Under the pieces are notes generated by a model. The model ran no database searches. It had not been told where the DNA came from and saw only the letters and a program-made list of their open reading frames with translations. The position numbers were made by a program, and so were the translations under genes. Below, one piece after another: positions 7,005-29,413 of a DNA stretch of 64,000 nucleotides; the first letter of the stretch is position 1; every line of letters begins with the position of its first letter. The stretch is from positions 65,140 to 129,139 of the IMG/VR virus record IMGVR_UViG_3300005617_000028, one strand, 5' to 3'. The DNA comes from a virus.

Positions 7005-7072
7005 ACAGCGGTTGTGCTGCACCGACCGCGCGTGTCATGGTCATGGGGACAGCGACTATGGAGGTTCGAGTC

Positions 7073-7402
7073 ATGATCAGTCAACGCACGCCGCACCCCT
7101 CAGAACGCAACCCCTGGCCGGGGCACAACGTACCGGTACCCGTCCGCATCGACGGCAAACGGGTCCTCTCCGCCATCAAGCTGCTGCCCGCGCCGCGCCA
7201 GCCCGCCCACCAGTGGATGGTGGTCACCGAATTCCCCGGGGCCCTGTTCAACCTGCTGCGCGTGACCTACCGCGACGACCTGTACCAGGTTGCCGACAGC
7301 GTCGGTCCGATCGAGTCCTACTCGCAGGCGGTTGCCTGGATGATCCGGGTGGCCCAGTCCCACGGAACACCCGCGCAGCTCACCGATTCGACCACGTCAT
7401 GA
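7073..7402 (+). CDS. Hypothetical protein
   Basis: Preceded by GACT-atggaggttcg-AGTC-ATG start element. Confidence 0.7.
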   Translation: MISQRTPHPSERNPWPGHNVPVPVRIDGKRVLSAIKLLPAPRQPAHQWMVVTEFPGALFNLLRVTYRDDLYQVADSVGPIESYSQAVAWMIRVAQSHGTPAQLTDSTTS

Positions 7403-7800
7403 CCGCCACCCTGGACAGCATCGTGGTGCAACGCGGCGGCGTGTCCTACCAGGTCGACATCGTCCCCGATTCCTTCACCCACCCCCGCGACTTCGACGAC
7501 CACCGCTACACCCCGGCCGATGAAGCCAACTACGGGGACGGCTGGCAGTTCGTGTCGGTGTCGGTCACCCCGGTCGGACATCACCTGTGCGCCGACTTCG
7601 ATGGAATCGAATACGGGCAGAGCCTGCGCTGGCAGGTGAGTACCGCAGACCTGATCGAGCGCGCCGACGCCGAAAACTGGTTCGAGGAGGCCCATGCCAA
7701 GCTGATCACCGCTACCACCAAGAACCGGTCACGGTGGCTACAGGGCATACGCCGTCTTGTGGCGGCTGGCCGTAGGGCGCTCGTCAGTATCGTCCGCTGA
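7399..7800 (+). CDS. Hypothetical protein
   Basis: ATGA-coupled ORF. Confidence 0.65.
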   Translation: MTATLDSIVVQRGGVSYQVDIVPDSFTHPRDFDDHRYTPADEANYGDGWQFVSVSVTPVGHHLCADFDGIEYGQSLRWQVSTADLIERADAENWFEEAHAKLITATTKNRSRWLQGIRRLVAAGRRALVSIVR

Positions 7801-7840
7801 GCGTGGCCACTGTCGACTGTGGACAACGGGGGAGACGACC

Positions 7841-8047
7841 ATGGCAACCAAGATCACCGTCACCGACCGGCCGTGTCCGGACGCTGAACAGCACACCGTG
7901 GGCCCGCCCGGATACCTCGCATTCTTCGAGTGGGCCGCGCTCATGAACAAGACGCACCGCCAGTGCAAATGCTCCGGCTGCGGCTGCTGGATGATCTGGC
8001 GGCCACGGCGTGCCACCACGGAGCCACAAGACATCAATGTAAGCTGA
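7841..8047 (+). CDS. Small Zn-finger-like protein
   Basis: GGGGGAG RBS; C...HT..P.GY..W..M.KTH.Q..C..C. Confidence 0.65.
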   Translation: MATKITVTDRPCPDAEQHTVGPPGYLAFFEWAALMNKTHRQCKCSGCGCWMIWRPRRATTEPQDINVS

Positions 8048-8078
8048 CCTAGCCGCAACGACTACGGGAGTTTGAGTC

Positions 8079-8432
8079 ATGACCGATTCACTGTTTCAGG
8101 AACCTGCCGCCGCCGGACCGCCCGAGCCCCCGCGTCTGCGGGGCCGTATGAAACGCCGTTTCGGGAAGGGCAACGTCTACACCGAGGTGGAGATGGCCGG
8201 TCGTCACAAGGCCCTGGAGAAGCAGGGGCGCCACTGCGACGCCAACTCCGGCCGCTGTCTGCAGGCCGCCACCAGGGCCCTGGAGGTGGTGGAGCTGGAC
8301 AGCGTCACGGGTGAGCCACACGCCGAACGCGGCGAGCAGCGACGGGTACAGGTGTGCAGTCAGCACGCACCGATCTACACGCGCAGCTCCCGCTTCCGGG
8401 TGATCTCGGAGGAGCGCATCTCCGCGTCCTGA
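8079..8432 (+). CDS. Hypothetical Zn-binding protein
   Basis: GACT-N11-AGTC-ATG start element; C...C...CxxH. Confidence 0.7.
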   Translation: MTDSLFQEPAAAGPPEPPRLRGRMKRRFGKGNVYTEVEMAGRHKALEKQGRHCDANSGRCLQAATRALEVVELDSVTGEPHAERGEQRRVQVCSQHAPIYTRSSRFRVISEERISAS

Positions 8433-8435
8433 AAA

Positions 8436-8477
8436 GTCGGCGGCCCCTCCTGGTAGACACGGGGTGGGGCCGCCGAC
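8436..8477 (+). terminator. Hairpin
   Basis: GTCGGCGGCCCC / GGGGCCGCCGAC perfect 12-bp stem. Confidence 0.65.
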
Positions 8478-8494
8478 CTGTAGGGAGAACCGTC

Positions 8495-9052
8495 GTGACC
8501 GCAAACAACCTGTCCGTGTCCCAGGTGACGCTGGACGCCGTACAAGCCACCGCTGTGGTGGACCGTCACGTGCATCAGATTGACATCGGCGCCCTGGCCA
8601 TCCCTGAACAGATTCAGGCTCTCCGCGCGGCGTTCACCAGGGTGAGCGACGCGGGTACGGCCGGTGGTAGCAGCCAACAGTACCTACAGGCACTGCTGAC
8701 TCTCGCTACGCGGGCCCTGCTGGCCGCCGAAGCCGGGGAGAACAGCGCAGCCACGGTAGACACGGAAGCCGCCGCACCGACTGAGATACCGCCGGACCCG
8801 TATGTCGTGAGCCACCCCGTCTTTGTCCGCAAGCTCGTCGACGCCGCGCTCCAACTGTTGCTGGCCGAACGCGCGTGCCTTTCTTCCCACCCTGATCCAC
8901 AGACCGAACGTGCCACGGTGTCTCTGTGCCTGACCGCGCTGGATCTGGTCGCGGAGGTGGACCAGCTTCCCCGCGCCGCCCAGCCTGTCGGCTGGCGCCG
9001 GTCACACGCCCGCCCGCCAGTAGATTTACGTACACCGAGGGACTTGACTTAA
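8495..9052 (+). CDS. Hypothetical protein
   Basis: GGGAG RBS then GTG. Confidence 0.6.
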   Translation: MTANNLSVSQVTLDAVQATAVVDRHVHQIDIGALAIPEQIQALRAAFTRVSDAGTAGGSSQQYLQALLTLATRALLAAEAGENSAATVDTEAAAPTEIPPDPYVVSHPVFVRKLVDAALQLLLAERACLSSHPDPQTERATVSLCLTALDLVAEVDQLPRAAQPVGWRRSHARPPVDLRTPRDLT

Positions 9053-9111
9053 GTATGGTCGCCGCGTTACCATTCCCTGGCCAGGTTGGCTGAGCCGTGG
9101 AGGGAGTTCCA

Positions 9112-9564
9112 ATGACCGAGGTCCGCGTTCTTGGCCAGCAGGCAAGGAAGCTCATCGCTGAGTGCGGTGCCGAGCTGGACGACAATTCCCAGCACGCGCA
9201 GCAGCTTGTGGGGTGTGTCATCGCGCCGAGTGGAATCCGGTTCAAAGCCTCGGGCTGCCACACCATCGCCATGAACTACCTGACCGATCGTGCCGCCGGC
9301 TGGCGTGCGCTGCTGGCGGACCTGCGCGCGGGCGTGGAGCCATGCGACACACCAGAATGTGAAATGTGCGACGGCGTTGACCCGGGTAGCGCTGCGCTGC
9401 CGGTGGCCGGGCCGGCGAGCCCCACCCGCCGCCGCTACCGCCACGCGCGGTACCACCGGTCCCGTCCGGACACCACAGCCGTGTGTCCGGACCCAGAGAA
9501 CTGCCCGCACCCCGGCGCGGTATCCGGCGACTCTTGCGAATGCTGCGGCGCGATCATCCCTTGA
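9112..9564 (+). CDS. Cys-rich hypothetical protein
   Basis: GGAGGGAG RBS; stop codon lies inside the next -35 box. Confidence 0.6.
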   Translation: MTEVRVLGQQARKLIAECGAELDDNSQHAQQLVGCVIAPSGIRFKASGCHTIAMNYLTDRAAGWRALLADLRAGVEPCDTPECEMCDGVDPGSAALPVAGPASPTRRRYRHARYHRSRPDTTAVCPDPENCPHPGAVSGDSCECCGAIIP

Positions 9565-9642
9565 CTTCCGCCACCCGGACAAGGTAGGTTCTGTCTACCA
9601 GATAGACACCACCGCAACGCAAGGCTTAGGAAAGGTCGGGCC

Positions 9643-9888
9643 ATGAGCGCAACACCCACCGCGGACGCTCCCAGCGAGGAGCAGACCTGGACCTTCTTCG
9701 GGTTCTGGGAGAACGACCGCATCGTCGTACAGTTCGAGACGCCCGGCGAGGTGGACGACGACCGCGAAGACGATGGGACACACGAGCAGGGTCTGTGGGC
9801 CGCATCCGGCTCTGGCCCGACCATGGAAGAGGCACAGCGGCTCGTCGTTGCGGAGTACGAAGACGCCGAAGACGAGGACCTGTCATGA
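9643..9888 (+). CDS. Acidic hypothetical protein
   Basis: Directly follows a family A leader. Confidence 0.8.
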   Translation: MSATPTADAPSEEQTWTFFGFWENDRIVVQFETPGEVDDDREDDGTHEQGLWAASGSGPTMEEAQRLVVAEYEDAEDEDLS

Positions 9889-10136
9889 GCGCCGCTGTCA
9901 TGCATCCTTACCCAGACACGCTCGCGAAAGCACGAAAGGTAGGAGCGAGTAAGGCCAATGATGTTGAGCTGCTGGCGCTCTACTGCGCCGATGTTCTACA
10001 GATCATTGTCGGGGCGGTGTCACCTCGACTTGTGTTTGAGGCCGCCCAGCAAAGAGGCATGACCGCCCTCGATCTCGCAGCGCTCACACTCTCTGACCCC
10101 GCCGCCGTGTCCGAACTGCAATGGGACCTGTCATGA
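9885..10136 (+). CDS. Hypothetical protein flanked by 21-bp direct repeats
   Basis: ATGA-coupled at both ends. Confidence 0.7.
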   Translation: MSAAVMHPYPDTLAKARKVGASKANDVELLALYCADVLQIIVGAVSPRLVFEAAQQRGMTALDLAALTLSDPAAVSELQWDLS

Positions 10137-10300
10137 GCGCCGCTAGCGACCTGCGCCGGGCCGAGGCCGTCCTGACTGAGCTGCTGGCCACCTACGCCAA
10201 GCACGGCTGCACCCCGGCCGAGACGGAGGACATGGAATCCGTTGTCAAGGCGCGCCGTAACGTCGAATTCCTACGGGGCCGGAAGGGGGGCCGAAGGTGA
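10133..10300 (+). CDS. 55-aa hypothetical protein
   Basis: Hand-translated MSAASDLRRAEAVL... Confidence 0.55.
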   Translation: MSAASDLRRAEAVLTELLATYAKHGCTPAETEDMESVVKARRNVEFLRGRKGGRR

Positions 10301-10412
10301 CCGCGAATGTACGCCGGGCTGCCGGGAACTCTTGACTTCCGTCACCGGGACAAGGTAGGTTCTGTCTACGAGATAGACACCACCGAAATACCAGGCTAGG
10401 AAAGGTCGAGCC

Positions 10413-10805
10413 ATGAACGGAAACAGAGAACAGGTCATGACCACCGGTGCCGAATACGCTAGCTTGCCCGCAGACGAGCGCGAGGCTTTGCTGATGCGGC
10501 AACACGGCGAAGCGAGAACCGCCAGCCAGCGGTACGCCGCGCTGCTCGTGCTGGAGGCCGGGGTAAAGGCCCGCGAATTTCTGCCCTCGGTTACGAAGCT
10601 GGCTTTCCGGTTGGGTGATGGAGGGTCAGTGGTCACGCTGCTCACCGCCTACGGGGTCGGCGGGGAGGTTCTGTGGGACCTCGATGTGGATGAAGAGTGG
10701 CCCGACGAAAGCCAGGTCGCCGACAACCTGGAGGCGGCCTATGACGCGGATGTCAGGTGCTTTAAGCGTGACGGTGACCTGCATTGCATCACCGTCGACT
10801 GGTGA
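10413..10805 (+). CDS. Hypothetical protein
   Basis: Follows a family A leader. Confidence 0.8.
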   Translation: MNGNREQVMTTGAEYASLPADEREALLMRQHGEARTASQRYAALLVLEAGVKAREFLPSVTKLAFRLGDGGSVVTLLTAYGVGGEVLWDLDVDEEWPDESQVADNLEAAYDADVRCFKRDGDLHCITVDW

Positions 10806-10858
10806 CACCATCCCGTCACTCGTGTACGCAGTTTCTGACTAAGGAGTTTCGAGTCATC

Positions 10859-11584
10859 ATGAGTAATGTCAACCCGCCCAGCTACACCTTTGAGGAGCCG
10901 ATCGGCACGATCCGTGTCGACGTGCTCACCGCCGAGGAGAACGACAGTCGTCGGCTCGCGCCGGAGCTTCAACCGCGTATCCGTGTGGACGCGACGCTGA
11001 CCGTTCGCGGTGTGGCTTACCGCGTCTTCGCCAAATACCGGTGGGAGCGGACCGGTCACGCGGTCTATTCCCACGGCAATCCGACCGGCGCCCATACTTA
11101 TTGGCAGGAGATCGACAGTCAGTACACCCGTGTCGACTCCGGTAAGCGGCCTGACTACAGCACACCTACTTACCGCACTCTGTACGACACAGTGTGGCGC
11201 GTGCTCGGCCGGCTGGTCGCCGACCATCCCGAGTGGCAGCATGCCTCTCTGGTGGCCCGGCTGCGGAAGTTGGCCGCTGAGTCTGAGCAGACCGCTGCAT
11301 CGGCCCGGTACCAGTGGATGGAAGCCACCACCAGGGCGGCCGCGCTGCGCGGCGAGCTGGCCACCGCCCTACTCGACCACAGTGCCGGGGTCAGCGGTGT
11401 GTGTCAGCACTGCGACCAACCAGTACGGCTGTCGGTCGACCCGTCGGTTCCCTGGGTGCACACGCAGACTGGTAACGGTTACTGCGACGTGTACGTACCC
11501 GTAGATGCGGTCATGTTGGCCGGCACGTCCGGCCGTACCGAGGCCAGCCCGTTGGCACAGAGCATTCAGGGAGAGCAGTCATGA
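10859..11584 (+). CDS. Hypothetical protein with C-terminal CxxC...H...C module
   Basis: TGACT-aaggagtttcg-AGTCA start element. Confidence 0.75.
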   Translation: MSNVNPPSYTFEEPIGTIRVDVLTAEENDSRRLAPELQPRIRVDATLTVRGVAYRVFAKYRWERTGHAVYSHGNPTGAHTYWQEIDSQYTRVDSGKRPDYSTPTYRTLYDTVWRVLGRLVADHPEWQHASLVARLRKLAAESEQTAASARYQWMEATTRAAALRGELATALLDHSAGVSGVCQHCDQPVRLSVDPSVPWVHTQTGNGYCDVYVPVDAVMLAGTSGRTEASPLAQSIQGEQS

Positions 11585-11724
11585 CAGTCCGAGGCGTGTT
11601 CCTGGTAGGGCTGACCGTTGCGGTCGGCGGGCTGGGCCTGGTCTTCTTCCCGCCCCTGGTCGTGGTCCTCATCGTGGCGCTCTGCCTGAGCCGGTTACGC
11701 CGGACCGCCAAGACTGGCAGTTGA
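11581..11724 (+). CDS. 47-aa membrane peptide
   Basis: Hand-translated, hydrophobic; stop inside the next TTGACA. Confidence 0.6.
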   Translation: MTVRGVFLVGLTVAVGGLGLVFFPPLVVVLIVALCLSRLRRTAKTGS

Positions 11725-11814
11725 CAGGGCACCTGACCAGCGACTATGTTCTGTCTACGAGCTAGACACCCCGCCGAAGGCTAAGCACCTTCCAGCCACA
11801 TAAGGACGGACATC

Positions 11815-12069
11815 ATGGTAGTCATCACTGCCCGCACCGATCTCGCGCCTCTCACCGGCGTACGGGTGCGCATCCAGAACACAGTGCGCGGTGAGCGGTT
11901 CACGCGCTACGGCGTGTTCACGGAGTTGTGGCACAGCGACGGCGCCCGGACCGGCATGGGCCCCCACGCTGGTGGCTACCTCACCGAGGAGCCGCACGGT
12001 TCCTGCCGGGGCGGCAATACGGCGTTCTGCCTGGACTACAACGACTCCACTGTGGAGGTTGCGCGATGA
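11815..12069 (+). CDS. Hypothetical protein
   Basis: Follows a family A leader; AAGGA RBS. Confidence 0.75.
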   Translation: MVVITARTDLAPLTGVRVRIQNTVRGERFTRYGVFTELWHSDGARTGMGPHAGGYLTEEPHGSCRGGNTAFCLDYNDSTVEVAR

Positions 12070-12545
12070 GCGCGGTCGGGAGTCGGGTTCGTCTGCTCGC
12101 CTGGGGCTCGGACGAGGCACTGCGGGAAGACAGCGTGCCGCACGGCACCGAAGGCACCGTGGTCGCGGTAGAAGACGACGTCAACATGATTCACGTCCGG
12201 TGGGACACCGGCCTAGAGCTGGGGCTGATCCCCGAACACGACCGGTGGGAAGAGGTGGCACCTTCGGTGACCGAGGTCGACCGCATCAGCAAACGCGCTC
12301 ACGTGGCCGCGCTCCGGGCCGGGAACTTCTGCTACATCTACTCCGGCTCTGACCGTACCGAGGTCGCCGAGCGCGCCCGTACGGGGGAAGTGGGGATGAC
12401 CGCTGCCAACCTCGATACCGAGGTGACCTGGCTACAGCCGCAACACTTCCACGAGACCTACCAGCGGCTCTGTGACGCGGTCGGCTACCGCAACGTATAC
12501 CTGATGCCCAGTACCGAGGGGAACGGCGCGGAGGCTGGTCCGTGA
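12066..12545 (+). CDS. DUF4314-like domain protein
   Basis: GSRVRL...VPHGTEGTVVAVEDD...IHVRWDTG..LGLIP..DRW. Confidence 0.7.
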   Translation: MSAVGSRVRLLAWGSDEALREDSVPHGTEGTVVAVEDDVNMIHVRWDTGLELGLIPEHDRWEEVAPSVTEVDRISKRAHVAALRAGNFCYIYSGSDRTEVAERARTGEVGMTAANLDTEVTWLQPQHFHETYQRLCDAVGYRNVYLMPSTEGNGAEAGP

Positions 12546-12757
12546 GCCTGTTTCCTACCCCACAGGACTACGCAGCCAACCCGCCCGGTAGCTGGACGAT
12601 ACAACGGCTGACACGCCGTCTGTACGCGCTCTGCGCGAGGGACGGCCGGGTGCTGGCCACCTACCCGCGCCGTGGTGACGCGGTCCGTGACGCAGACAGG
12701 ATCAGAGCACAGTACGACCAGGAGAGACGCGCGACCACCGTAGACACTCGCTCTTGA
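12542..12757 (+). CDS. Hypothetical protein
   Basis: GTGA-coupled; stop inside the next TTGACT. Confidence 0.6.
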   Translation: MSLFPTPQDYAANPPGSWTIQRLTRRLYALCARDGRVLATYPRRGDAVRDADRIRAQYDQERRATTVDTRS

Positions 12758-13167
12758 CTTAGGTCTACCGCCCGGTGTACCTTACGTATGTAGGCAAACG
12801 AGCGACACCAGGAGGCGCCACCATGAACGATCAGGTACCCGCCAAGGAACCGACGGTAACCGTAAGTCTTCCGCGCAGTTACAGACTAGTCATCGAGTGT
12901 GGTGCGCCGGGCGAGAACATCGATGGTGCCGTGCGGCAGGCTACCGCCTGGTTGTGCGACAGCATCGACGAGAGTGGTGAGCATGACTTGACCGTAACGG
13001 TGACCGATGAAACGGGCGAGCTTGTCGCTCAGCACCAGTATCAAGCTCATTAGGGACGCGCGTGTCCACCGTAGACACTCGCTCTTGACTTAGGTCTACT
13101 GTTTGGTGTATCTTACGTATGTAAGCAAGCGAGCGACACCAGGAGGCGCCACCATGAACGACCAGGT
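12726..13167 (+). repeat. Two ~110-bp near-identical promoter-leader-start repeats
   Basis: ~12726-12836 vs ~13055-13167, both ending GGAGGCGCCACC-ATGAACGAYCAGGT. Confidence 0.9.
12823..13053 (+). CDS. Hypothetical protein (starts MNDQV)
   Basis: AGGAGG RBS in repeated leader. Confidence 0.8.
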   Translation: MNDQVPAKEPTVTVSLPRSYRLVIECGAPGENIDGAVRQATAWLCDSIDESGEHDLTVTVTDETGELVAQHQYQAH

Positions 13168-13426
13168 TTCCGTTACCGAGGTGGTCGACCTGTCCGACGA
13201 GCTGACCGGCGAGGCCGAACACATCCGCGATAGCGGCGTATCCACCGAGGCCGAGGTCCACCGGTTCTGGCACCGCATCAACGGGCCGGCCGAGGAGGTC
13301 GGGTGTCCGTGGGATGCTTGTCACAATCCGCGGGATGACTACGACGGGCCGGCCTGGTGTGGCCAGTGGATCGACTCGGCCGACTACTGCTCCGGCGACC
13401 ACGGCGCCGAACAACAACCGTTCTGA
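13154..13426 (+). CDS. Acidic Cys-containing hypothetical protein (starts MNDQV)
   Basis: AGGAGG RBS in repeated leader. Confidence 0.8.
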   Translation: MNDQVSVTEVVDLSDELTGEAEHIRDSGVSTEAEVHRFWHRINGPAEEVGCPWDACHNPRDDYDGPAWCGQWIDSADYCSGDHGAEQQPF

Positions 13427-13462
13427 GTCCGCACAACCGTTGAGGCTAGGGAGAATCAAGCC

Positions 13463-14086
13463 ATGAAACCGCTCACCACACTTGCCGCCGAGGTTGACCA
13501 GATCCGCGAAACGCTGTTTGGTATCGCCCGCGCGCACCGCTCGGTGATCCCACCGGCCGAGGTCGTCGCGACCGAGGCGGCAACGCTGGCCCAGCAACTG
13601 GGCGAGGTCATCTCCGCGCTCCTGGCGCCTGCGGGCCTGCTCTCCTCTGTGGAGTGGACAGCGGACCTGGCAGACGCGGAGGTCGCCACGCTCGACGACC
13701 AGAGCCGAAGGCTACTCGCCAACGCGCTACGTGAGGCGTGGAATGACAAGCAGGACTGGGCAGTCCTGGACAAGGTACGGGGCCGCATCGCTGGCAAATA
13801 CCCGTTCGCGGATGCGCGCGTGGTTCTGTTCACCGCCTCGGAGTGGGACAACGGGTGGTATCTAGATGACACTGCCGCCGTCTTCTTCGCGGACGGTACC
13901 TCGGATTCCAATGTGGATTTCGGGTGCACCACGGAGCTAACCGAGGGACACGGCAGCGTCGGGCCTGATTCAGCGCTGGCCGTCAACCTCCGCACGGGTG
14001 AGATGTTTTTCGACGATTACCGCGCCAACGTCACCGAGAAAATGTGTGAGTGGTTGGGACTTGCGGAGCTGCCGCCGAGCGCGTAA
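13463..14086 (+). CDS. Hypothetical protein
   Basis: GGCT-N11-AGCC-ATG start element. Confidence 0.8.
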   Translation: MKPLTTLAAEVDQIRETLFGIARAHRSVIPPAEVVATEAATLAQQLGEVISALLAPAGLLSSVEWTADLADAEVATLDDQSRRLLANALREAWNDKQDWAVLDKVRGRIAGKYPFADARVVLFTASEWDNGWYLDDTAAVFFADGTSDSNVDFGCTTELTEGHGSVGPDSALAVNLRTGEMFFDDYRANVTEKMCEWLGLAELPPSA

Positions 14087-14138
14087 GGTCCTGTCTATCA
14101 GCTAGACACCGCACACCGAGGCTAAGGACAATCAAGCC

Positions 14139-14522
14139 ATGACAAGCATCATCGACAGTGAGCCGACCCATATCCGGCGTGACCGGTCCATCGAGTTTCA
14201 GTGGCCGGTACGACCGGGCAAGTGTGACAGTCTCGACGGCCAGGGAACCGTGCACGCCGTTCTGTACGTGTCACACGATGGCGACGTCAAACGGTTCCGG
14301 GCCAGCACGCACCCGGCCACCATCTACCCGAACGGCGTAACCAGCATGGAGATCTCCCTGCTCGCGCAGGGCTTCCGGTTCAGTGAGTCCACGCCGCGCT
14401 ACAGCGTGAAAGCGTTGGAAGCGTTCGCGCTGCGGGCCGTCGCCGCGCTGCGTACCGCGTACGCCGCTGGCGACACTAAGGTACTGGCGCTGTTTGACAC
14501 GGAGCCGGCAACGGCAGAATAG
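14139..14522 (+). CDS. Hypothetical protein
   Basis: Follows a family A leader. Confidence 0.8.
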   Translation: MTSIIDSEPTHIRRDRSIEFQWPVRPGKCDSLDGQGTVHAVLYVSHDGDVKRFRASTHPATIYPNGVTSMEISLLAQGFRFSESTPRYSVKALEAFALRAVAALRTAYAAGDTKVLALFDTEPATAE

Positions 14523-14608
14523 ACAAGGGCTTGACACGCAGCCCCCGACCACATAGATTCTGTCTATCAGCTAGACACCGCACCACCGAGGCTAAGGAAA
14601 ATCAAGCC

Positions 14609-14923
14609 ATGGCACAGCAAGTGGTAACCCTGCCCGACTCGTTGATCAACGCAATCCGGGTGGTCTGCGCAGACACGGACACCGATCCGGGCGCAGCGGT
14701 TGAGGCCGCGCTGCTCATCACGTACGGATACGCGCTGTACCGGGCAGCCGATTCGATCGAGCCGACCAGCATCGTGATACCCAAGGCGCAGTGGCTACAG
14801 ATCGCTGAGATGCTGGTCAGTGGTCGGGGCCCGGCGGTCGACCGCGCAAACCTCGGACTGACGTGGATGAACCTCGGGCCATCATCGGCCGACGCTTACA
14901 GAAGTGGGCAGGTTCCGGCATGA
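14609..14923 (+). CDS. Hypothetical protein
   Basis: Follows a family A leader. Confidence 0.8.
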   Translation: MAQQVVTLPDSLINAIRVVCADTDTDPGAAVEAALLITYGYALYRAADSIEPTSIVIPKAQWLQIAEMLVSGRGPAVDRANLGLTWMNLGPSSADAYRSGQVPA

Positions 14924-15111
14924 GTGACACACGAGTCAAGTTGGCCGCGCTGCGCAAGGCGAGCGAGGGACCGGACCCGTACGCCGAGGCGGATGCGGAC
15001 CACACGCCGGTCCGCACGGTGCCGGGTGAGGATGGTTTCGAGTGTGGCCGGTGCGGGCTGGCCATCACGGCCGACGCGCGGAGGCACGGACACATCGCGG
15101 ACGGGAAGTGA
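14920..15111 (+). CDS. Small Zn-ribbon protein
   Basis: ATGA-coupled; H...CGRC...H. Confidence 0.6.
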   Translation: MSDTRVKLAALRKASEGPDPYAEADADHTPVRTVPGEDGFECGRCGLAITADARRHGHIADGK

Positions 15112-15116
15112 GCACC

Positions 15117-15347
15117 ATGAGCGGAGCCACCACACAACGGTGCGTCAACGACGATCCGTCCTGCCGGGGCCCGGTGGAGCTGCGCACGGCGCTGTCAGGT
15201 ACGGGTACGCCGTTCCCGCGCTGCGAGCTGCACTGGCAGAAACGGCTAGACCTGGAAGAGGGGTTGCGCGAGCGGTATCCGGTGCACCCGCCAGCGGGCT
15301 GGTCGCCGGCCGACATTGGCGAGAGCTGGAGTGAGGAGGACTACTGA
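15117..15347 (+). CDS. Small actinophage-type protein
   Basis: C....C.G.VE.R..LSGTG..FPRC..HW...P....P...GE.W pattern recalled from mycobacteriophage genes. Confidence 0.7.
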   Translation: MSGATTQRCVNDDPSCRGPVELRTALSGTGTPFPRCELHWQKRLDLEEGLRERYPVHPPAGWSPADIGESWSEEDY

Positions 15348-15658
15348 TGTTCTACGTGACGATTGTTCGTGACAGTAGGCAGGTTGGGGTACTGGCCGGG
15401 CCTTTCAACTCGGCCGAAGACGCGCAGCCGTGGGTGGAGCGCACCCGCGTCGCAGCGATCGCGGTAGACCGGTGGCCACACTTCGACGCTTTCGGCGTGT
15501 CGCACATCCCCGGACGGGGCGCGCCCGGCCGTCTCAACGCTCGCCTGGGGCTGCTGCCGGCCGGCTCGGTCGGGTACCGGGTCTGGCGACAGGGACCGGT
15601 CACGCACGCTGCCTCACATGAGGCCGCCGGTACCGTGCGTTCGGTACCGTCCGTCTGA
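15347..15658 (+). CDS. Hypothetical protein
   Basis: TGATG-coupled; FYVT..R....LAGPF. Confidence 0.7.
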   Translation: MFYVTIVRDSRQVGVLAGPFNSAEDAQPWVERTRVAAIAVDRWPHFDAFGVSHIPGRGAPGRLNARLGLLPAGSVGYRVWRQGPVTHAASHEAAGTVRSVPSV

Positions 15659-15876
15659 TGGATGACGAGGAGGCCGGCCGGCTCGCGCGGGAAGACGGCT
15701 ACGTGACCTGTGACGAGTGTGGGCACATGATGGAGCGCCACGACACCACGGGCTGTCAGACGGCGATTGACGGCGGTTGCCCGTGCCAGGTACGGGTTAC
15801 GCAGACGGAGATCCGCGCGATACGTGTCCGGTACGGACTGCCGGCCCGGTTCGACCGCAACCTCTTGATGCCGTAA
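15658..15876 (+). CDS. Small Cys/His protein
   Basis: TGATG-coupled; CDECGH...H...C...C.C. Confidence 0.65.
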   Translation: MDDEEAGRLAREDGYVTCDECGHMMERHDTTGCQTAIDGGCPCQVRVTQTEIRAIRVRYGLPARFDRNLLMP

Positions 15877-15990
15877 GCCACCTGTAGCGCAGACAGGCTA
15901 CAGCGGCGCGCGACAGCGCTTGACGTAGGTACACCGACGGGTGTACGTTCACCACATCAGCAAAGCACGGCTACGGAAAGTTGGAGCCAC

Positions 15991-16557
15991 ATGCGCAAGA
16001 CATGGAATCACGTACCGCCGGAGTCCACCCAGCCCTGTCCCGATGACAATATGAGTATGTGTGTGATCGGACAGGTCGGAGTCTGGCACGGTGACCGGCG
16101 GAAGCTCATTCACACGGAATCGGCTATGGAGATCGCCGCATGGTGGCAGGGTCCGCGCTCGCCCGGACTCACCGCGTTTGCCAGTACCGGAACCATCACG
16201 CCGGACCTGCTACTGGAAATCGCCGCCGCGCGTCGCACGGTGACCGGTGCCGACGGTGACGACCTGGACGCGCTGGCGGCCTACGTGCGCGCCGTGGTGA
16301 TCCTGACAGGCGACGACGCTGCCTACCACGGCGCAGAGGAGACGTGCGACCATTGCACCGATTCCGGTTGCCTCTACATGGCCAGCGCGATCACGTTCAC
16401 AGTCCAGGTGGAGGTAACGCGCGGTTCCGGCCCGTGGCAGGTTACGTCGGCAGTAGCCAGCGCTCTTGGTGAGGCTATCGCCAACGCGGGCGCCGGAGTT
16501 TTCTCCGTGCTGGGTTCTGAGTACTGGACCACGGGCGTACGGTCCCGCCGTGCCTGA
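15991..16557 (+). CDS. Hypothetical protein
   Basis: Follows a family B promoter and start element. Confidence 0.75.
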   Translation: MRKTWNHVPPESTQPCPDDNMSMCVIGQVGVWHGDRRKLIHTESAMEIAAWWQGPRSPGLTAFASTGTITPDLLLEIAAARRTVTGADGDDLDALAAYVRAVVILTGDDAAYHGAEETCDHCTDSGCLYMASAITFTVQVEVTRGSGPWQVTSAVASALGEAIANAGAGVFSVLGSEYWTTGVRSRRA

Positions 16558-16693
16558 TGAGGTTTGGATCAACGAGTCGCGCGCCGAGATGTGCGAGTGC
16601 GGTTGTGACACTGACCTACATGACGTAGTGGAAGTCGATGTTTTCTGTCCCAACTGCGGTGTGTGGTGCGCGGATGTGAGGGACATCGCTTGA
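16550..16693 (+). CDS. 47-aa Zn-ribbon protein
   Basis: CECGC...CPNC; stop inside the next TTGACA. Confidence 0.55.
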   Translation: MPDEVWINESRAEMCECGCDTDLHDVVEVDVFCPNCGVWCADVRDIA

Positions 16694-16760
16694 CACTGTG
16701 AGTACGACAGGCTAGCTTGTGTCTAGCAGGTAGACAGAACGGCTACGGAAAGTAGGAGCC

Positions 16761-17132
16761 ATGGAAATTCTCGCTTACCACAACGCACGGTCGAACGACG
16801 ATCGCGATTTCGCCTTTCTCACACACAAGACGGGTGAGCCGGTAGTCCTGGTCTTCCGCACCGAAATCCCGGATCAGGATGATCTCGCGGCGTGCGAGTG
16901 GGCTTTCCACCTGCTCAACGTTGGCCATGAGGCTTTCGGTACGCCCGATCCGGCAGCCATCGAGTACCGCGCACGCGGTAACAGGTCACTGTCGGTTGGC
17001 GACGTCGTTTCGGTTGACGGTCGGTTCTACGCGGTTGCGTCGTATAGCTGGGCGCCGATCGACAAACCGCCGATGGTCGAAACCACTGCGCCGGGCACTA
17101 CGCCGATCGCGGATACGGCTCTTGACGGGTGA
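16761..17132 (+). CDS. YodL-like domain protein
   Basis: F..LN......RSLSVGDVV.VDGRFYAV motif. Confidence 0.7.
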   Translation: MEILAYHNARSNDDRDFAFLTHKTGEPVVLVFRTEIPDQDDLAACEWAFHLLNVGHEAFGTPDPAAIEYRARGNRSLSVGDVVSVDGRFYAVASYSWAPIDKPPMVETTAPGTTPIADTALDG

Positions 17133-17197
17133 TGGGCAAGCAGGCTACTGTCTAGCTAGTTGACAGGCACAACCCAACGGCTAGGGAAGTAGGAGCC

Positions 17198-17533
17198 ATG
17201 GAAACTCGCAGCTACGCGGACGGTACATCGATCACAGTCAAGATGCCGTGGTCGGTGTACGTGAGCGCACGGGTACTCTGTTCGGACGGCAAGGTGCGCG
17301 CCACGGCACGGATTGCATTGACGGCCGACACCTTCTTTTCGGTGCCGTGCGCGGTTAAGGTTTCCGGCCGGACGGTTTCCGGTTACCTCACAGTGGAGAC
17401 GCGCGAGGGAATGTCTACCGAAACCACGGATGATCCGGCCGTCGTTAAGTTCATCGCGTGCGGCAAGAACGCCGACGCGCTGCCGACCGGTGCCTACGTC
17501 GTACCCGCCACGGTTTCATCGGCGGTTTCCTGA
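17198..17533 (+). CDS. Hypothetical protein
   Basis: Follows a family A leader; DGKVR...ADTFFSVP..V...G..VSGY. Confidence 0.8.
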   Translation: METRSYADGTSITVKMPWSVYVSARVLCSDGKVRATARIALTADTFFSVPCAVKVSGRTVSGYLTVETREGMSTETTDDPAVVKFIACGKNADALPTGAYVVPATVSSAVS

Positions 17534-17766
17534 TGGGCGCCACACGGCAGCGTTTCACGCCGGCCGAGCGCTCGGCCCTGCTGATCGGCGCGGACATCGA
17601 ATGGCGCCACGGTTCTCGGTGGTACGCCGGAACGGTTTCCGGCCCGATTACCACGGATGAAATCGGTGCGCAGTACGTACCGGTTACGCACACAATCAAG
17701 AGCCCAACGGTTTCACCCGGAGGGATGCGCGGTTACCCGAAACAGATTCGCGTGCTGGCGGTTTGA
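17533..17766 (+). CDS. Hypothetical protein
   Basis: TGATG-coupled. Confidence 0.65.
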   Translation: MGATRQRFTPAERSALLIGADIEWRHGSRWYAGTVSGPITTDEIGAQYVPVTHTIKSPTVSPGGMRGYPKQIRVLAV

Positions 17767-17848
17767 CACGGGTTTCAGCTCTTGACTTAGGTTCACTACG
17801 GTGTGTACGTTCATGCCACACAACCAAACGGCTACGGAAGTAGGAGCC

Positions 17849-18289
17849 ATGTCAAGTACCCGTATCGGCGTAGCGTACGGCCCGATTCACAACGGTCGAC
17901 AGAACACGTACGCGGTTTACCGCGTCAACGTGGACGCGACGGTAACCGTTGAACACACCGGTCACCGTGAGGGTACGACCATGGTCGGGCTGCCGTTGGG
18001 CGGGCCCGGGTGGCGGCCGCCGACACGGTTCGATAGCGACATCGATCACTTCGTTGAGATCACGTTTCTCCGCCACTGTGGCGAGATGCCATCGCACATC
18101 GGCTCGCGCGCCATGGCTGGCATCGATCAGGCAACCGACAGCGACGGCGTACGGGTGCGTGAGTGCACCGGCCGGTACGGCACGCTAGACGGGCCGCACA
18201 GTACGTACGGTGCCACGGTCCGATGGGATGATGGCTCGCGGTTCTACGTGGACTCTGCGTGCCTGTGGCGGGTCCCATCGGCCCTGTAG
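17849..18289 (+). CDS. Hypothetical protein
   Basis: Follows a family B leader. Confidence 0.75.
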   Translation: MSSTRIGVAYGPIHNGRQNTYAVYRVNVDATVTVEHTGHREGTTMVGLPLGGPGWRPPTRFDSDIDHFVEITFLRHCGEMPSHIGSRAMAGIDQATDSDGVRVRECTGRYGTLDGPHSTYGATVRWDDGSRFYVDSACLWRVPSAL

Positions 18290-18301
18290 CGTGGACACGC
18301 T

Positions 18302-18332
18302 AGGCCCGGTCGGTACGCCCGGCCGGGCCTTT
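18302..18332 (+). terminator. Intrinsic terminator-like hairpin
   Basis: AGGCCCGGTCGG-N5-CCGGCCGGGCCT-TT. Confidence 0.7.
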
Positions 18333-18338
18333 GCCGTC

Positions 18339-18583
18339 GCTGCCCGCTTGCACGCTGCCGCTCGCCTGTCCGCTTGCACGCTGCCGCTTGCACGCTGCCG
18401 CTCGCCTGTCCGCTCGCACGCTGCCGCTCGCCTGTCCGCTCGCACGCTGCCGCTCGCACGCTGCCGCTCGCACGCGCACGCACGCCTGTCCGCTCGCACG
18501 CCTGTCCGCTCGCACGCGCACGCACGCTGCCGCTCGCACGCTGCCGCTCGCCTGTCCGCTCGCACGCTGCCGGCTCGCCTCGC
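18339..18583. repeat. Mosaic tandem repeat, ~15 copies of CCGCT(C/T)GC at mostly 12/14-bp spacing
   Basis: Units GCTGCCGCTCGCAC and CTGTCCGCTCGC read directly. Confidence 0.9.
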
Positions 18584-18674
18584 TAGCTAGAAATTATTGC
18601 TACTTGACTCGCCAGAGACGCACAGGCTACTGTCTACCTAGTTGACACCACGGCTACGGAACATGGGAGCTATC

Positions 18675-19697
18675 ATGACTGCCGAAATGACTCGATTCGC
18701 CCGATCGCTGGACAGTACGGAATTTCAGCCGTTGAACGGCAGGCGTGACCCGTTCGATCTACTGTCCAGTGTGAGTGCCAACGTTGGCGACGCACAGACC
18801 ATGATGGAAACGGCCGGCGTACTCGGTTGGTCGCCGGAAATGATTCCGCTATCCGGAATGGATAGCGTCGGCAACATGTACGAAACTCCGGCCAGCAATT
18901 ACGGAATCGTCGTACCGACCTATCCGACAGGTCCGGCCTATTTCGGTCAGGCTCACAAGGATTTCAAATTCATCCGTCCGGAAGCGTTGCATCCGCTGAT
19001 CGACGCGATTGTCGCGCACGGCAATCCGCTCACGGGGATTATTCCGGGCCCGGTTACCCGATTCGTCTTCGATTCTAAACTGATCGACATCACGCCGTAT
19101 AGCAAGGCAGCGGCTGAGAACATCGGCGAAATTATCCGTGTGCGCTGGCAACTGGACCTCGGCAACACTGGCAAGAATTCCCTTGTCATTGGCCAGAAGG
19201 GTATGCGTCTAATCTGCGCGAATGGGGTGAGTACGGCTTCGTCAATGGGTAGCGTGTCGATCTCGCATAGCAATCTCGCGCCGGGCAAGATCGCTGCCAC
19301 GGTCGATCGGATCATGAGTCAGGGAAACATCGGACTCGATAAGTGGATTACGGACGCTCGCCAGACGATCAACGCTCGCTTGACACTGGACGGAGCACTC
19401 GCACTGTGGGCGGATCTGTTCTCATGGACTGACGACAAGGACGGGCGCGCGCTCACCACACAAGACTCGCAGCGTGCGACGCTTACCCAGCTCTGGCGGT
19501 CCCCTACCCAGACGATCACGTACCCGGAAACAGCGTGGGCGTTTTTCGGCGCGACAACCGAATACCTCGACCATGAGGCGACCGTCCGATTTGGTGGCGA
19601 CACTCGTGAGCGTGCGCTCGCACGTCGGGTAGTCGAGTCCGCTCCGGCCGTCGAGTCCGTCAAGAATCGCGCATGGGAGATGGCGCTAGCCGTCTAG
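18675..19697 (+). CDS. DUF932-like protein
   Basis: GMRLICANG, ISH, TAWAFFGATTEYLDH, K.RAWE.AL motifs. Confidence 0.8.
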   Translation: MTAEMTRFARSLDSTEFQPLNGRRDPFDLLSSVSANVGDAQTMMETAGVLGWSPEMIPLSGMDSVGNMYETPASNYGIVVPTYPTGPAYFGQAHKDFKFIRPEALHPLIDAIVAHGNPLTGIIPGPVTRFVFDSKLIDITPYSKAAAENIGEIIRVRWQLDLGNTGKNSLVIGQKGMRLICANGVSTASSMGSVSISHSNLAPGKIAATVDRIMSQGNIGLDKWITDARQTINARLTLDGALALWADLFSWTDDKDGRALTTQDSQRATLTQLWRSPTQTITYPETAWAFFGATTEYLDHEATVRFGGDTRERALARRVVESAPAVESVKNRAWEMALAV

Positions 19698-19712
19698 GCA
19701 ACGCGCACGGGT

Positions 19713-19750
19713 GAGGCGAGGGGACAGTCCCCTCGCCTCGCTCTTGTTTG
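19713..19750 (+). terminator. Intrinsic terminator
   Basis: GAGGCGAGGGGA-CAG-TCCCCTCGCCTC followed by T-rich tract. Confidence 0.85.
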
Positions 19751-19855
19751 TCATACGTACGTTGTTCGTTTGACTTAGGTACAGCACGGATGCTAGTTTG
19801 ACATCTCAACCAAACGGCCACGGATAATCGGGCCCAGAGCAAAGGATCAGCCATC

Positions 19856-20188
19856 ATGGATGTCAACGCTACGTGGTCAGAAATTCTCGCCATCCTGTCG
19901 CAGCCGATGACATCGGAAAACGCAGACCGGCTCGAAGAGCTTGCCTACGCGCTTGACGGTTGGCTTGCGCGTGGCGGTTACGCTCCCGGTACTTGGCCGG
20001 TAGGCACACTCGGGTACTACCGCCACGCATGCGCTTACGGTGAGTCGGTAGGCATGTCCGATGGCGAGTGCGTCACGTACGCCGCATGGTTCGTGGCGGA
20101 ATGGGCAACCGACATCGACACAGACACGGATCACACTCGCGAGGTAGTGCGCTTCCGTCGGATCATGAGCGTCGCCACGGTCGTCTAG
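19856..20188 (+). CDS. Two-module hypothetical protein
   Basis: MD.NAT...ALDGWL.RGG..P..W N-module; C-module shared with 20615-21016. Confidence 0.75.
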   Translation: MDVNATWSEILAILSQPMTSENADRLEELAYALDGWLARGGYAPGTWPVGTLGYYRHACAYGESVGMSDGECVTYAAWFVAEWATDIDTDTDHTREVVRFRRIMSVATVV

Positions 20189-20192
20189 CCCG

Positions 20193-20243
20193 TACGCCGC
20201 AACGCGGAACCGCGCCACCCAAACCATGGGTGGCGCGGTTTCT
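20193..20243 (+). terminator. Terminator, duplicated at ~21022-21070
   Basis: TACGCCGCAACGCGG-AACCGCGCCACCCA-N5-TGGGTGGCGCGGTT-TCT. Confidence 0.85.
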
Positions 20244-20305
20244 GTATCTGCCCTACATCTGTAGTCTGTTTGACTTAGGTACCCTCGCCACGGTACCGTG
20301 CGCCT

Positions 20306-20515
20306 ATGAGTCGTGATACCGCAGAGAACCGCGCCGCGTACGTCCGTGGTTGGGCTGCGTCCGTTCGCCACGCAGAAGGCGCCTTAGAACGCGCCGATGA
20401 TCGTGGCGAAATCGGCGCATGGTACGACGGATATCTCGACTACGCAGCCGATCGGCCGAAGTGGCACACGCTGCGTTGCCTAAGCGATAACCACGACACG
20501 TGCGACACGCCTTAA
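20306..20515 (+). CDS. Hypothetical protein, probably leaderless
   Basis: ATG 6 nt after the -10 of a family B promoter. Confidence 0.7.
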   Translation: MSRDTAENRAAYVRGWAASVRHAEGALERADDRGEIGAWYDGYLDYAADRPKWHTLRCLSDNHDTCDTP

Positions 20516-20614
20516 ATCTGTACCTCGTTTGACTTAGGTACTCTCGCCACGGTACGTTGACATCTCAACCAAACGGCCACGCATAATCGGCCACGCGCTA
20601 CGGAGGTTCCACCC

Positions 20615-21016
20615 ATGGTCAGCTACTCCACAGATGAGATGATCAACATTCTGCGTTCCGGCCACGGCTACTCGCCAGACGACGTTACGTCGGTCCTAGA
20701 TCAACTCATCTCGGCCGGACTGGACACTGTGACCGAGAATGAGGCTAGCGGCTACACGTTCACTGTCGATGAATTGCGTACCGCGTTGCTGCAGCTCATC
20801 GCACGGGTACCTATGGCGCTGCAGTCGTGGCTTTGGCGCCACGCATACTACTACGCCGAGGTAGTTCATCACATGTACGCCGATGAGTGTGAGGCGTACG
20901 CGGAGTGGTTCACGCTGCGATACGCCGACCCGTTGACACTGACCACGGCTATCTGTCACTCACGCGAGGTTCCGGTATGGCGCGCCACGGTACCGACCAT
21001 GGTCACGCTCGGCTAG
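20615..21016 (+). CDS. Two-module hypothetical protein
   Basis: GGAGG RBS after a family B promoter. Confidence 0.75.
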   Translation: MVSYSTDEMINILRSGHGYSPDDVTSVLDQLISAGLDTVTENEASGYTFTVDELRTALLQLIARVPMALQSWLWRHAYYYAEVVHHMYADECEAYAEWFTLRYADPLTLTTAICHSREVPVWRATVPTMVTLG

Positions 21017-21021
21017 CCGCT

Positions 21022-21070
21022 TACGCCGCAACGCGGAACGCGCCACCCAACCATGGGTGGCGCGGTTTTC
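21022..21070 (+). terminator. Terminator, copy 2
   Basis: CGCGCCACCCA-N4-TGGGTGGCGCG-GTTTT. Confidence 0.85.
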
Positions 21071-22110
21071 GTATGTCCGGCCGACGTGACCACAGAAACA
21101 GCGCTTTCCGCCGACTTCCCGATTCTCCCAGAAAAGCCAAGAGGCCCGTAGAGCCGATCGCTACCCGTTGTCTGTCGGGATGGTAAGCCCATCCCTGCCT
21201 ACCCTGCCCGATCGCTGCCCTACGGACACCACAGAGGCTCTGGCGACCCATCCTCCGGACCATGGGTCCCCAACCGATGATGTGACCTCTGTACCGTCCG
21301 GCTACTCGTGGCCAACTCGGCCAATCATCAGGGAACCGCGTGCGCTCACGTACCCGTACCGCGTAGCCGGCTAACCGTCGGGACCGCTTACGTACCCGTG
21401 CGACTGTGAACCGCTAGCCGGTACCCGTACGGTCAGCACACGTGGCAGTCACCTTCAGTTGGGGCTTACTGTCAGAATCGCTGGCCACGCTCATTCGCAC
21501 GCTGATCGATCCGAGCATGTCCGGCTAGTCCGAGCCTGACTGTATCGCGTCCCAGAGTCCATTTCTGCCAGATCGACGCTACCGGCTCAGAACGGCTACA
21601 GGGTCCACGGGTACCAACTTGGCATGCTGGACCGCGTATGGGCCTCTGTGGCTGTCGCAAGCCCTACCGTGGCGCGGTTCGTACCCTGCCAATCGGGAGC
21701 GTGGCTTGCCATTCTGAACATGGGTGACCGATCGGTCGGGTACGTGACCTAGCGTCCGATATTGTCGGCAATCCCTTACGCCGCAACGGATGTAGCCTCG
21801 CCACGACGCTTGCGCTCCATAAAGGACGTTGAGTGGATCATGCGAAAACGCTAGTTGATCTTTCCTACCCGATCCAGCACCAGACAAGATCAACCCATGC
21901 CCGAAAGCCCGATCACGCTGATCCGTGGGCACCTATGATCGGGCAGGCTTTCGGGCAGGGTCGGAACAGGACCTATCGGCTGCTAGAGCGACGCTTGCCA
22001 TGGGTGCCCAGAGGTACGCTTTTGGGCATGGCTATCTGTGCGCAATTCCTGTAGCGTCACGGGTAGCGCGCACCCATCGGAACGCGCACCGGTCACGGAA
22101 GTAGGGACCC

Positions 22111-22260
22111 ATGGACGAACAATGCGAGTACGGGGACTGTGTCTCAGAGGACGGCTACGGCACGTGCGAGGGATGCGGCCACCCGATGTCGGTTGATCAC
22201 TCGCCTGTGAGCGTGCGCAGCACGTGCGAAGACGCTCCCTGTTGCGGATGTTGCTCATGA
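22111..22260 (+). CDS. 49-aa Cys-rich protein ending CEDAPCCGCCS
   Basis: Hand-translated; preceded by GGTC-acggaagtagg-GACC start element. Confidence 0.7.
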   Translation: MDEQCEYGDCVSEDGYGTCEGCGHPMSVDHSPVSVRSTCEDAPCCGCCS

Positions 22261-29372: not shown

Positions 29373-29413
29373 TGTTTAGCGATTTGACAGTTGACCTGTG
29401 TAGCCGCTAAACA
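29373..29413 (+). promoter_or_regulatory. Inverted repeat flanking TTGACA upstream of the hicB-like gene
   Basis: TGTTTAGCG ... CGCTAAACA. Confidence 0.55.

Follow-up and report, generated by a model that had tools for sequence, protein, structure and literature searches.

Paired and covarying flanks around the Shine-Dalgarno sequence in early-gene leaders of an uncultivated soil actinophage

The stretch of DNA analysed here (the window, 64,000 nucleotides) comprises bases 65,140-129,139 of the 129,139-bp IMG/VR record IMGVR_UViG_3300005617_000028, for which CheckV gives a completeness of 96%, and our subject is a short hairpin that recurs in the leaders of its early genes. The GC content of the window is 0.61-0.72, with a lower-GC block at about 10-22 kb. 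Megablast against 50,697 GenBank phage records gave no nucleotide match, two proteins resemble those of actinobacterial phages at 27-32% identity, and DNA of the phage is present in rhizosphere metagenome runs, no RNA run being listed; contigs from four runs were compared, of which three are identical in sequence and the fourth, X6, is a relative at about 90-95% identity. The phage is an uncultivated soil actinophage with no close cultured relative. All 17 reading frames that follow the hairpin start with ATG, have 49-340 codons and show a coding-type composition (GC highest at the third codon position, then the first, then the second). Sixteen of the 17 predicted proteins belong to no Pfam family, which is the norm among early phage genes; the exception is a DUF932 protein of 340 amino acids whose ATG is at 18675. 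On reading, the genes of the array that have no hairpin mostly overlap the stop codon of the preceding gene with their start or are preceded by a plain GGAGG site.

The element consists of a purine-rich loop of 10-12 nucleotides (nt) closed by a stem of 4 bp, 18-20 nt in total (Table 1). By reading the sequence and by a scripted scan of the whole record, we located 17 copies in early-gene leaders, all on the plus strand and confined to positions 7054-22109 of the window. Fourteen are of the ribosome-binding-site (RBS) type, in which the Shine-Dalgarno (SD) sequence lies inside an 11-12-nt loop and 0-3 nt separate the 3' arm from the ATG (in ten of them the arm ends exactly at position -1); the other three are displaced upstream. 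The original prediction had listed 15 sites, and all 15 are present with the positions and stems claimed for them, including the one at 11779, where the GGCT-N11-AGCC stem is indeed kept around a loop without an SD sequence and the ATG lies 17 nt downstream; the copies at 19816 and 20575 (ATG 21 and 22 nt downstream, respectively) are additions. Among the 14 RBS-type copies, the stem is GGCT/AGCC in eight, GACT/AGTC in three and GGTC/GACC in one, and the last two (GGCT/GGCC and GGCT/AGCT) have one G.U pair each. The loops fall into four subfamilies: a-N-GGAG-tttcg, which goes with the GACT/AGTC stems, (t)aggaaaggtcg, a-R-gga-N-aatca and a-N-ggaa(a)gtagg. Their purine run sits at the ordinary SD spacing, and AAGGA, GGAGG and AGGAAAGG of this phage, like GAAAGGA of the related phage L069 described below, are presumably complementary to the 3' end of actinobacterial 16S rRNA.

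In the window, the pattern GGCT-N11/12-AGCC has 13 matches where 2.85 are expected (standard deviation 1.52), and none of 100 shuffles reached 13. Nine of the 13 matches are members of the family; the other four (1790, 6146, 11974 and 22722) have no start codon after them and are consistent with the chance expectation. A look-alike at genome position 33783 was rejected, as it precedes a three-codon frame and hence is not at a gene start.

The array is also rich in promoter-like sites. TTGAC-N17-19-TANNNT has 15 matches where 0.8 are expected, all of them on the plus strand at 9044-20558, and in 11 of the 15 the hairpin begins 17-33 nt past the -10 element. A palindrome, TGTCTA-N5-TAGACA, lies just past the -10 element in eight copies (9592-18647) against 0.48 expected. 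Taken together, the promoter-like sites, palindromes and hairpins make the array a string of cassettes, each composed of promoter, operator, hairpin and orphan gene.

Table 1. Hairpins and promoter-operator-hairpin cassettes of the early array, in window coordinates
Feature	Coordinates	Strand	Downstream start and product
RBS hairpin GACT-atggaggttcg-AGTC	7054..7072	+	ATG 7073, 109-aa orphan
RBS hairpin GACT-acgggagtttg-AGTC	8060..8078	+	ATG 8079, 117 aa
RBS hairpin GGCT-taggaaaggtcg-GGCC, one U.G	9623..9642	+	ATG 9643, 81 aa
RBS hairpin GGCT-aggaaaggtcg-AGCC	10394..10412	+	ATG 10413, 130 aa
RBS hairpin GACT-aaggagtttcg-AGTC	10837..10855	+	3-nt gap, ATG 10859, 241 aa
Displaced hairpin GGCT-aagcaccttcc-AGCC, no SD in loop	11779..11797	+	separate SD, ATG 11815
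RBS hairpin GGCT-agggagaatca-AGCC	13444..13462	+	ATG 13463, 207 aa
RBS hairpin GGCT-aaggacaatca-AGCC	14120..14138	+	ATG 14139, 127 aa
RBS hairpin GGCT-aaggaaaatca-AGCC	14590..14608	+	ATG 14609, 104 aa
RBS hairpin GGCT-acggaaagttgg-AGCC	15969..15988	+	2-nt gap, ATG 15991, 188 aa
RBS hairpin GGCT-acggaaagtagg-AGCC	16741..16760	+	ATG 16761, 123 aa
RBS hairpin GGCT-agggaagtagg-AGCC	17179..17197	+	ATG 17198, 111 aa
RBS hairpin GGCT-acggaagtagg-AGCC	17830..17848	+	ATG 17849, 146 aa
RBS hairpin GGCT-acggaacatggg-AGCT, one G.U	18652..18671	+	3-nt gap, ATG 18675, DUF932
Displaced hairpin GGCC-acggataatcg-GGCC	19816..19834	+	separate SD, ATG 19856
Displaced hairpin GGCC-acgcataatc-GGCC, 10-nt loop, no GGA (found by eye; model R1 score 14.9 bits)	20575..20592	+	separate SD, ATG 20615
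RBS hairpin GGTC-acggaagtagg-GACC	22091..22109	+	1-nt gap, ATG 22111, 49 aa
Cassette: TTGACT-N-TAGGTT promoter-like site, TGTCTA-N5-TAGACA at 9592-9608, hairpin, ATG	9561..9645	+	
Cassette, near-duplicate of 9561-9645; inverted repeat 10363-10379	10332..10415	+	
Cassette: promoter-like site, inverted repeat 11752-11768, displaced hairpin	11721..11817	+	
Cassette: TTGACA-17-TAGATT, inverted repeat 14561-14577, hairpin	14531..14611	+	
Cassette, second promoter class; GTACAC..GTGTAC repeat in spacer (by eye), hairpin	15920..15993	+	
Cassette: promoter-like site, inverted repeat 16720-16736, hairpin	16690..16763	+	
Cassette: promoter-like site, inverted repeat 17149-17165 (1 mismatch), hairpin	17122..17200	+	
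Cassette, second promoter class, hairpin	17782..17851	+	
Cassette: promoter-like site, inverted repeat 18631-18647 (1 mismatch), hairpin	18604..18677	+	DUF932 gene
Cassette, second promoter class, displaced hairpin	19770..19858	+	
Cassette, second promoter class, displaced hairpin	20529..20617	+	

Fifteen of the sites were aligned cleanly by MAFFT (9623 was misaligned and omitted), and all 60 stem cells of this alignment are standard pairs, with double-sided changes in three of the four stem pairs (six cells). The observed pairing and covariation scores were not matched in 500 shuffles; when the 3' arm is slid by 1-3 columns, pairing falls to 18-52% and there are no double changes. The sites at 22091 and 17830 share an identical 11-nt loop and differ by four substitutions (GGCT/AGCC to GGTC/GACC), all of them in the stem and all compensating. 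As the earlier choice of sites had rested partly on pairing, we scanned the genome with a weight matrix of the loop only, and every loop match with a following ATG is fully paired except that at 20596. Model R1 recovers its 15 training sites and finds 20575 and 9623, which were not in the training set, weakly; it is dominated by sequence and gave no match with E < 1 in the relatives.

Homologues of the DUF932 protein number 45, with identities of 52-82%. An alignment of such homologues (A4) yielded 15 related loci, 14 from metagenomes and one viral; the same alignment gave no locus in genome contigs, and a single protein query of viral contigs gave no relative. One of the related loci, L069, is a 15.4-kb metagenome phage with a DUF932 protein 78% identical to ours. 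Searching it with the word GAAAGG alone gives eight copies of N4-A-N-GAAAGGAAAC-N4 followed after 0-3 nt by ATG, and the frames behind them (32-211 codons) are coding. The stems comprise six pairings (GGCC/GGCC and GACC/GGTC twice each; CGTC/GACG, CGTC/GGCG, GGCC/GGTC and CGCC/GGCG once each), in which all 32 stem cells pair and double changes occur in three of the four pairs; none of 500 shuffles matched this, and slid arms pair at 6-42%. We also counted reverse-complement flanks around SD-like loops at gene starts, with three composition-matched control arrangements for each genome. The present genome has 45 against 23, 31 and 29 in the controls, and L069 has 13 against 5, 9 and 5; the related loci L070, L077 and L082 show no excess over their controls. 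Scans of IMG/VR with DNA patterns returned 56 loci for the SD and stem, four for the operator (none of them related) and at least 112 for the L069 loop, with one match in each locus; no useful relative came from these scans.

MAFFT misaligned the combined set of both phages, and they were therefore counted separately. On each alignment, RNAalifold predicts exactly the four stem pairs. Over the 25 copies of both phages (9623 and 20575 being added by eye), 100 of 100 stem cells pair, 96 as Watson-Crick pairs and four as G.U, with no mismatch. All four of the latter are G.U on the sense strand and none is A.C, which is how they would read on the opposite strand. The original prediction had argued for base pairing rather than a fixed DNA operator, and the complete pairing here and in L069 bears this out. 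A palindromic operator in duplex DNA, bound by a dimeric protein, would of course also have flanks that form an inverted repeat, and the array does contain operator-like palindromes in the eight copies of TGTCTA-N5-TAGACA. In the hairpin family, however, the half-sites vary around a conserved asymmetric centre, their spacing ranges between 10 and 12 nt, the orientation and the distance to the ATG are fixed, and every imperfect cell is a sense-strand G.U. The strand bias, the changing half-sites, the asymmetric centre and the spacing argue for pairing in the sense-strand RNA, which we consider well supported by the alignments, and the DNA operator is unlikely, indeed extremely so in our judgement. 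As judged from the sequences, selection for pairing operates in both phages. The RNA-level feature is real and strongly supported, and we suggest that the flanks around the SD sequence pair with each other.

It could be argued that the motif is a mere footprint of cassette duplication and recombination, as in the PeSL (early promoter and stem-loop) cassettes of T4-type phages, and that flank complementarity is without function. The cassettes at 9561-9645 and 10332-10415 nearly duplicate each other, the loops form four subfamilies, and contigs of X6 seem to join across cassette-bounded genes, although the sides of these joins are short and the evidence weak. A comparison of 35 translated array proteins with the related loci found only DUF932 and one weak match (the 15991 protein with L070, 36% over 116 residues), so leaders of one kind stand before unrelated genes in this phage and in L069. 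Copying leaves unexplained, however, the matched changes in the two arms (six doubly changed pair positions in two phages, with every cell paired) and the drift of the stems around fixed loops in L069. We regard the footprint explanation as improbable, whilst noting that a role in shuffling may coexist with a structural one.

What the hairpin does is less certain than that it pairs. We infer that it folds in vivo and acts on translation initiation, and from its position a translational control element, as originally proposed, seems plausible. On balance, and with limited confidence, we think it probable that this start-associated RNA hairpin of early genes acts in cis as a module for the display or tuning of the RBS. 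In the mRNA, the four bases just 5' of the SD sequence would pair with a second set of four, separated from the AUG by 0-3 nt, so that the SD sequence would be exposed in a purine-rich loop of 11-12 nt with the AUG at the foot of the helix. At about -2 to -6 kcal/mol the stem would be weak, which would let the 30S subunit dock on the loop and then melt the stem to place the AUG. Such an arrangement would keep the SD sequence unpaired within GC-rich leaders and would give one uniform ribosome site to 14 unrelated orphan genes, most of which have their own host-type promoter-like site; the shared site may also be an address for one putative trans-acting factor. The isolated hairpin is predicted to be favourable at 16 of 16 sites (-1.7 to -5.9 kcal/mol).

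Several observations weigh against this account. In contexts of 74-95 nt, the predicted probability of the stem is at least 0.5 at only seven of the 16 sites and about zero at four. Complementing one arm in silico lowers the predicted accessibility of the SD sequence, and this accessibility is not regained when both arms are changed to compensate; the folding predictions, then, do not support the display of the SD sequence. The three displaced hairpins (11779, 19816 and 20575) lie 17-22 nt upstream of a separate SD sequence and ATG, two of them have no GGA in the loop, and they fit a role for the hairpin itself better than one in SD display. The exception in the loop-only scan, 20596, is the SD region of gene 20615, which looks like a member of the family and yet pairs at only two of four flanking positions. 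In L069, the stems drift around a loop that is invariant at 11 of 12 positions; such loop conservation exceeds what an SD sequence needs and points to a sequence-specific partner. The compensatory events that are independent are few (about four here and about four in L069), as the copies within one phage are paralogues. Finally, among the loci long enough to judge, the element occurs in two phages only, and it was not found in L070, L077 or L082, all of which carry DUF932.

Some of these points suit a different account, in which the hairpin is a shared binding or cleavage site for a trans-acting factor (a phage or host RNA-binding protein or endoribonuclease) that would switch the whole early set off or on, with a logic like that of RegA, RegB, the MS2 operator or CsrA. 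In 129 kb, the uniform structure is found at 17 early leaders and nowhere else, the stem is kept in the three copies that do not serve as an RBS, and the loops of L069 are fixed within variable stems. CsrA/RsmE sites have A-N-GGA in a short hairpin loop (5-6 nt) that overlaps the SD sequence, and these sites, the targets of RegA and RegB, the MS2 operator and the leaders of T4 genes 25 and 38 all resemble the present element in having a hairpin or GGA at the RBS, which in those systems controls initiation on a set of mRNAs. The resemblance is incomplete: the loop here has 11-12 nt rather than 5-6, the AUG lies outside the stem, unlike in the coat-protein operator of MS2, and the SD sequence is inside the loop, whereas in T4 genes 25 and 38 it is upstream of the hairpin. 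The original prediction had likened the loops to CsrA/RsmA sites, and the A-N-GGA start holds for the loops of this phage but is lost from five of the eight loops of L069, which begin ACGAAAGG or ATGAAAGG. As a statement of membership, the analogy to CsrA and to T4 RegA/RegB fails, since the phage record encodes no homologue: profile searches of it at E values up to 0.1-1 gave no CsrA, RegA (PF01818), RegB (PF10715), CSD, S1 or ANTAR, and PF02599 (CsrA) had no match at E up to 1 in these searches, which covered the phage record. Nor was an antisense RNA partner found in the sequence, the longest complementary words being 12 nt, in coding DNA and at chance level. Rfam gave two matches only, both far below the gathering score and neither at the hairpin. 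A new protein family is a possible partner; as a whole, we hold the trans-acting explanation to be unlikely, though it deserves to be taken seriously.

Actinobacteria translate leaderless mRNAs well, and the hairpin might instead be a processing site at which a cut at the 3' foot, 0-3 nt before the AUG, yields leaderless mRNAs. The frequent ending of the 3' arm at -1 would suit such a cut, and by eye the array gene at 20306 already looks leaderless. The loops nevertheless hold a normally spaced SD sequence, which a leaderless mRNA would not require, and the three displaced copies are 17-22 nt away from their AUG. We consider processing very improbable and retain the cis-acting RBS module as our preferred explanation.

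[quoted passage not shown] In Cluster K, the published descriptions give the SAS as GGGATAGGAGCCC, 13 nt long and located 3-9 bp before the start, mostly ATG, of 13-19 right-arm genes, about half of the copies being preceded by an ESAS that consists of a SigA-like promoter and an inverted repeat (Pope et al. 2011, PMC3203893; the paper on Adephagia, PMC11373665; PMC12699233). Our hairpin resembles it in being a motif at the RBS position of non-structural or early genes, in one orientation and with a strong preference for ATG, in having an SD core with symmetric outer bases (GGG...CCC in Cluster K), and in following a SigA-like promoter and inverted repeat in about half of its copies. It differs in length and position (18-20 nt, with the 3' end 0-3 nt from the ATG), and its flanks vary yet always pair, whereas those of Cluster K are nearly invariant; the passages on SAS in the published Cluster K work propose no hairpin. 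In Cluster EF Microbacterium phages, a 13-bp SAS, GGGAAAGGACCCC, is described in ten copies at RBS positions with a linked upstream motif (Jacobs-Sera et al. 2020, PMC7302621). Its AAAGGA purine core resembles the L069 loop and the AGGAAAGG loops of this phage and, compared by the published description alone, it has complementary G-rich and C-rich flanks as our hairpin does, but these are reported as fixed. Neither sequence marks the family: GGGATAGGAGCCC with up to two mismatches has a single match in the window (1.91 expected), which falls at none of the family sites, and GGGAAAGGACCCC with up to one or two mismatches occurs twice against 2.51 expected, again at no family site. As a kind, nonetheless, the hairpin has what characterises SAS and ESAS: the RBS position, at least ten copies, a single orientation, restriction to the early part, conservation beyond the need of an SD sequence, ATG at 17 of 17 starts, and a subset with promoter and inverted repeat. 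The hairpin, as far as its sequence tells, shares the SAS/ESAS architecture, and its sequence, length and phage lineage differ. The phage is not of Cluster K, having no megablast match among the GenBank phages and protein identities no higher than 32%.

We looked for pairing in Cluster K itself using Pixie, Anaya and Kratio, with sites chosen on the inner core only. There are 58 such sites, of which 38 have GGG/CCC flanks. Of the 20 non-consensus sites, three are fully paired compared with two, zero and one in slid controls, which is not significant, and departures in a single arm occur; in these genomes the alignment gives no clear support for covariation. The three paired variants are in Mycobacterium phage Pixie (L195), at 18520, 20060 and 12866, with the core ATAGGAG and the flanks CGG/CCG, TAC/GTA (before the integrase gene) and TGA/TTA.

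SAS have been catalogued in actinophages since 2011, and papers of 2020, 2024 and 2025 describe their role as unknown or unverified in the sections that treat it (PMC3203893, PMC7302621, PMC11373665, PMC12699233), for Cluster K as recently as 2024-2025 (PMC11373665 and the 188-genome survey PMC12699233). Since the flanks in Clusters K and EF are nearly invariant, comparison within those clusters could not have revealed pairing. Drifting but complementary flanks turn conserved bases next to the SD sequence, which cannot pair with 16S rRNA, into a self-pairing hypothesis that is testable in the tractable Cluster K phages of Mycobacterium smegmatis. A bolder and rather doubtful proposal is that the SAS of actinophages (Cluster K, Cluster EF, the present group and others) are one class of SD-display hairpin, with a loop read by a putative factor, encoded by phage or host, that would switch the early set as a whole at the RBS; were it true, the covarying stems of the present group would be the first evidence from sequence comparison that the class is of RNA nature. 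The hairpin would in addition be a compact and portable RBS module for high-GC hosts, and, in a 129-kb soil phage with early genes that are otherwise all orphans, it marks the early regulon.

PeSL cassettes of T4-type phages have been described as placing host sigma-70-type promoters ahead of numerous early orphan genes within a hyperplastic region (Arbiol et al. 2010, PMC2839356). Going by that description, the two kinds of cassette are alike as small repeated regulatory units and possible crossover points for the gain and loss of genes. The stem-loops of PeSL are terminators, whereas the present hairpin has 4 bp and no U-run, encloses the SD sequence and abuts the start codon; our terminator scan lists none of the hairpins. 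X6 contigs seem to join 9664 to 10432 and 20221 to 21054, and so to be without the cassette-bounded genes between, and one seems 3 nt shorter at 10854, which would put hairpin 10837 flush with its ATG; each of these differences is seen in one contig at a depth below 5 and with short sides, and the evidence is weak.

The set of TGTCTA-N5-TAGACA palindromes looks like an operator regulon, as far as can be told from the motif. Two weaker tandem copies with two mismatches each, at 29373 and 29397 (29373-29413), are distant from the array and perhaps lie near the gene of the regulator. A second class of promoter, TTGAC(T/G)TAGGT..., whose spacer contains, by eye, an inverted repeat of the GTACAC..GTGTAC type, occurs at 12754-12783, 13085-13114, 15920-15949, 17782-17811, 19770-19799, 20270-20299 and 20529-20558. 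Its repeat suggests a second type of operator and, with it, two differently regulated sets of early promoters. The first two of these sites are in near-identical promoter-leaders of about 85 bp (12740-12825 and 13070-13156) before two small genes that start MNDQV, with a plain AGGAGG site and no hairpin. Within 20270-20308, a -10-like TACCGT precedes the ATG of a 69-codon gene (start 20306) by about 7 nt, as read by eye, and this gene may use a leaderless mRNA. Just upstream of the DUF932 promoter, about 290 bp (18300-18590) consist of degenerate short tandem repeats, GCTCGCACGCTGCC and GCTCGCCTGTCC being examples of the unit. The DUF932 gene and the two small genes after it are each followed by a strong terminator-like hairpin (19709-19743, 20205-20240 and 21039-21064), the last two of these hairpins being near-copies, GCGCCACCCAA(A/-)CCATGGGTGGCGCG.

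The leaders of the relatives were also listed by eye, the listing covering the loci other than L080-L082. L070 repeats another leader hairpin, with a variable complementary stem and an AGCAC-type loop 15-30 nt before starts, examples being at 1425-1470, 2050-2100, 4223-4282 and 9200-9257 (CCGCC-AGCAC-GGCGG and CCGGCC-AGAAC-GGGCCGG), and L076 has GCTCC-ACAC-GGGAGC at the equivalent position in a leader.

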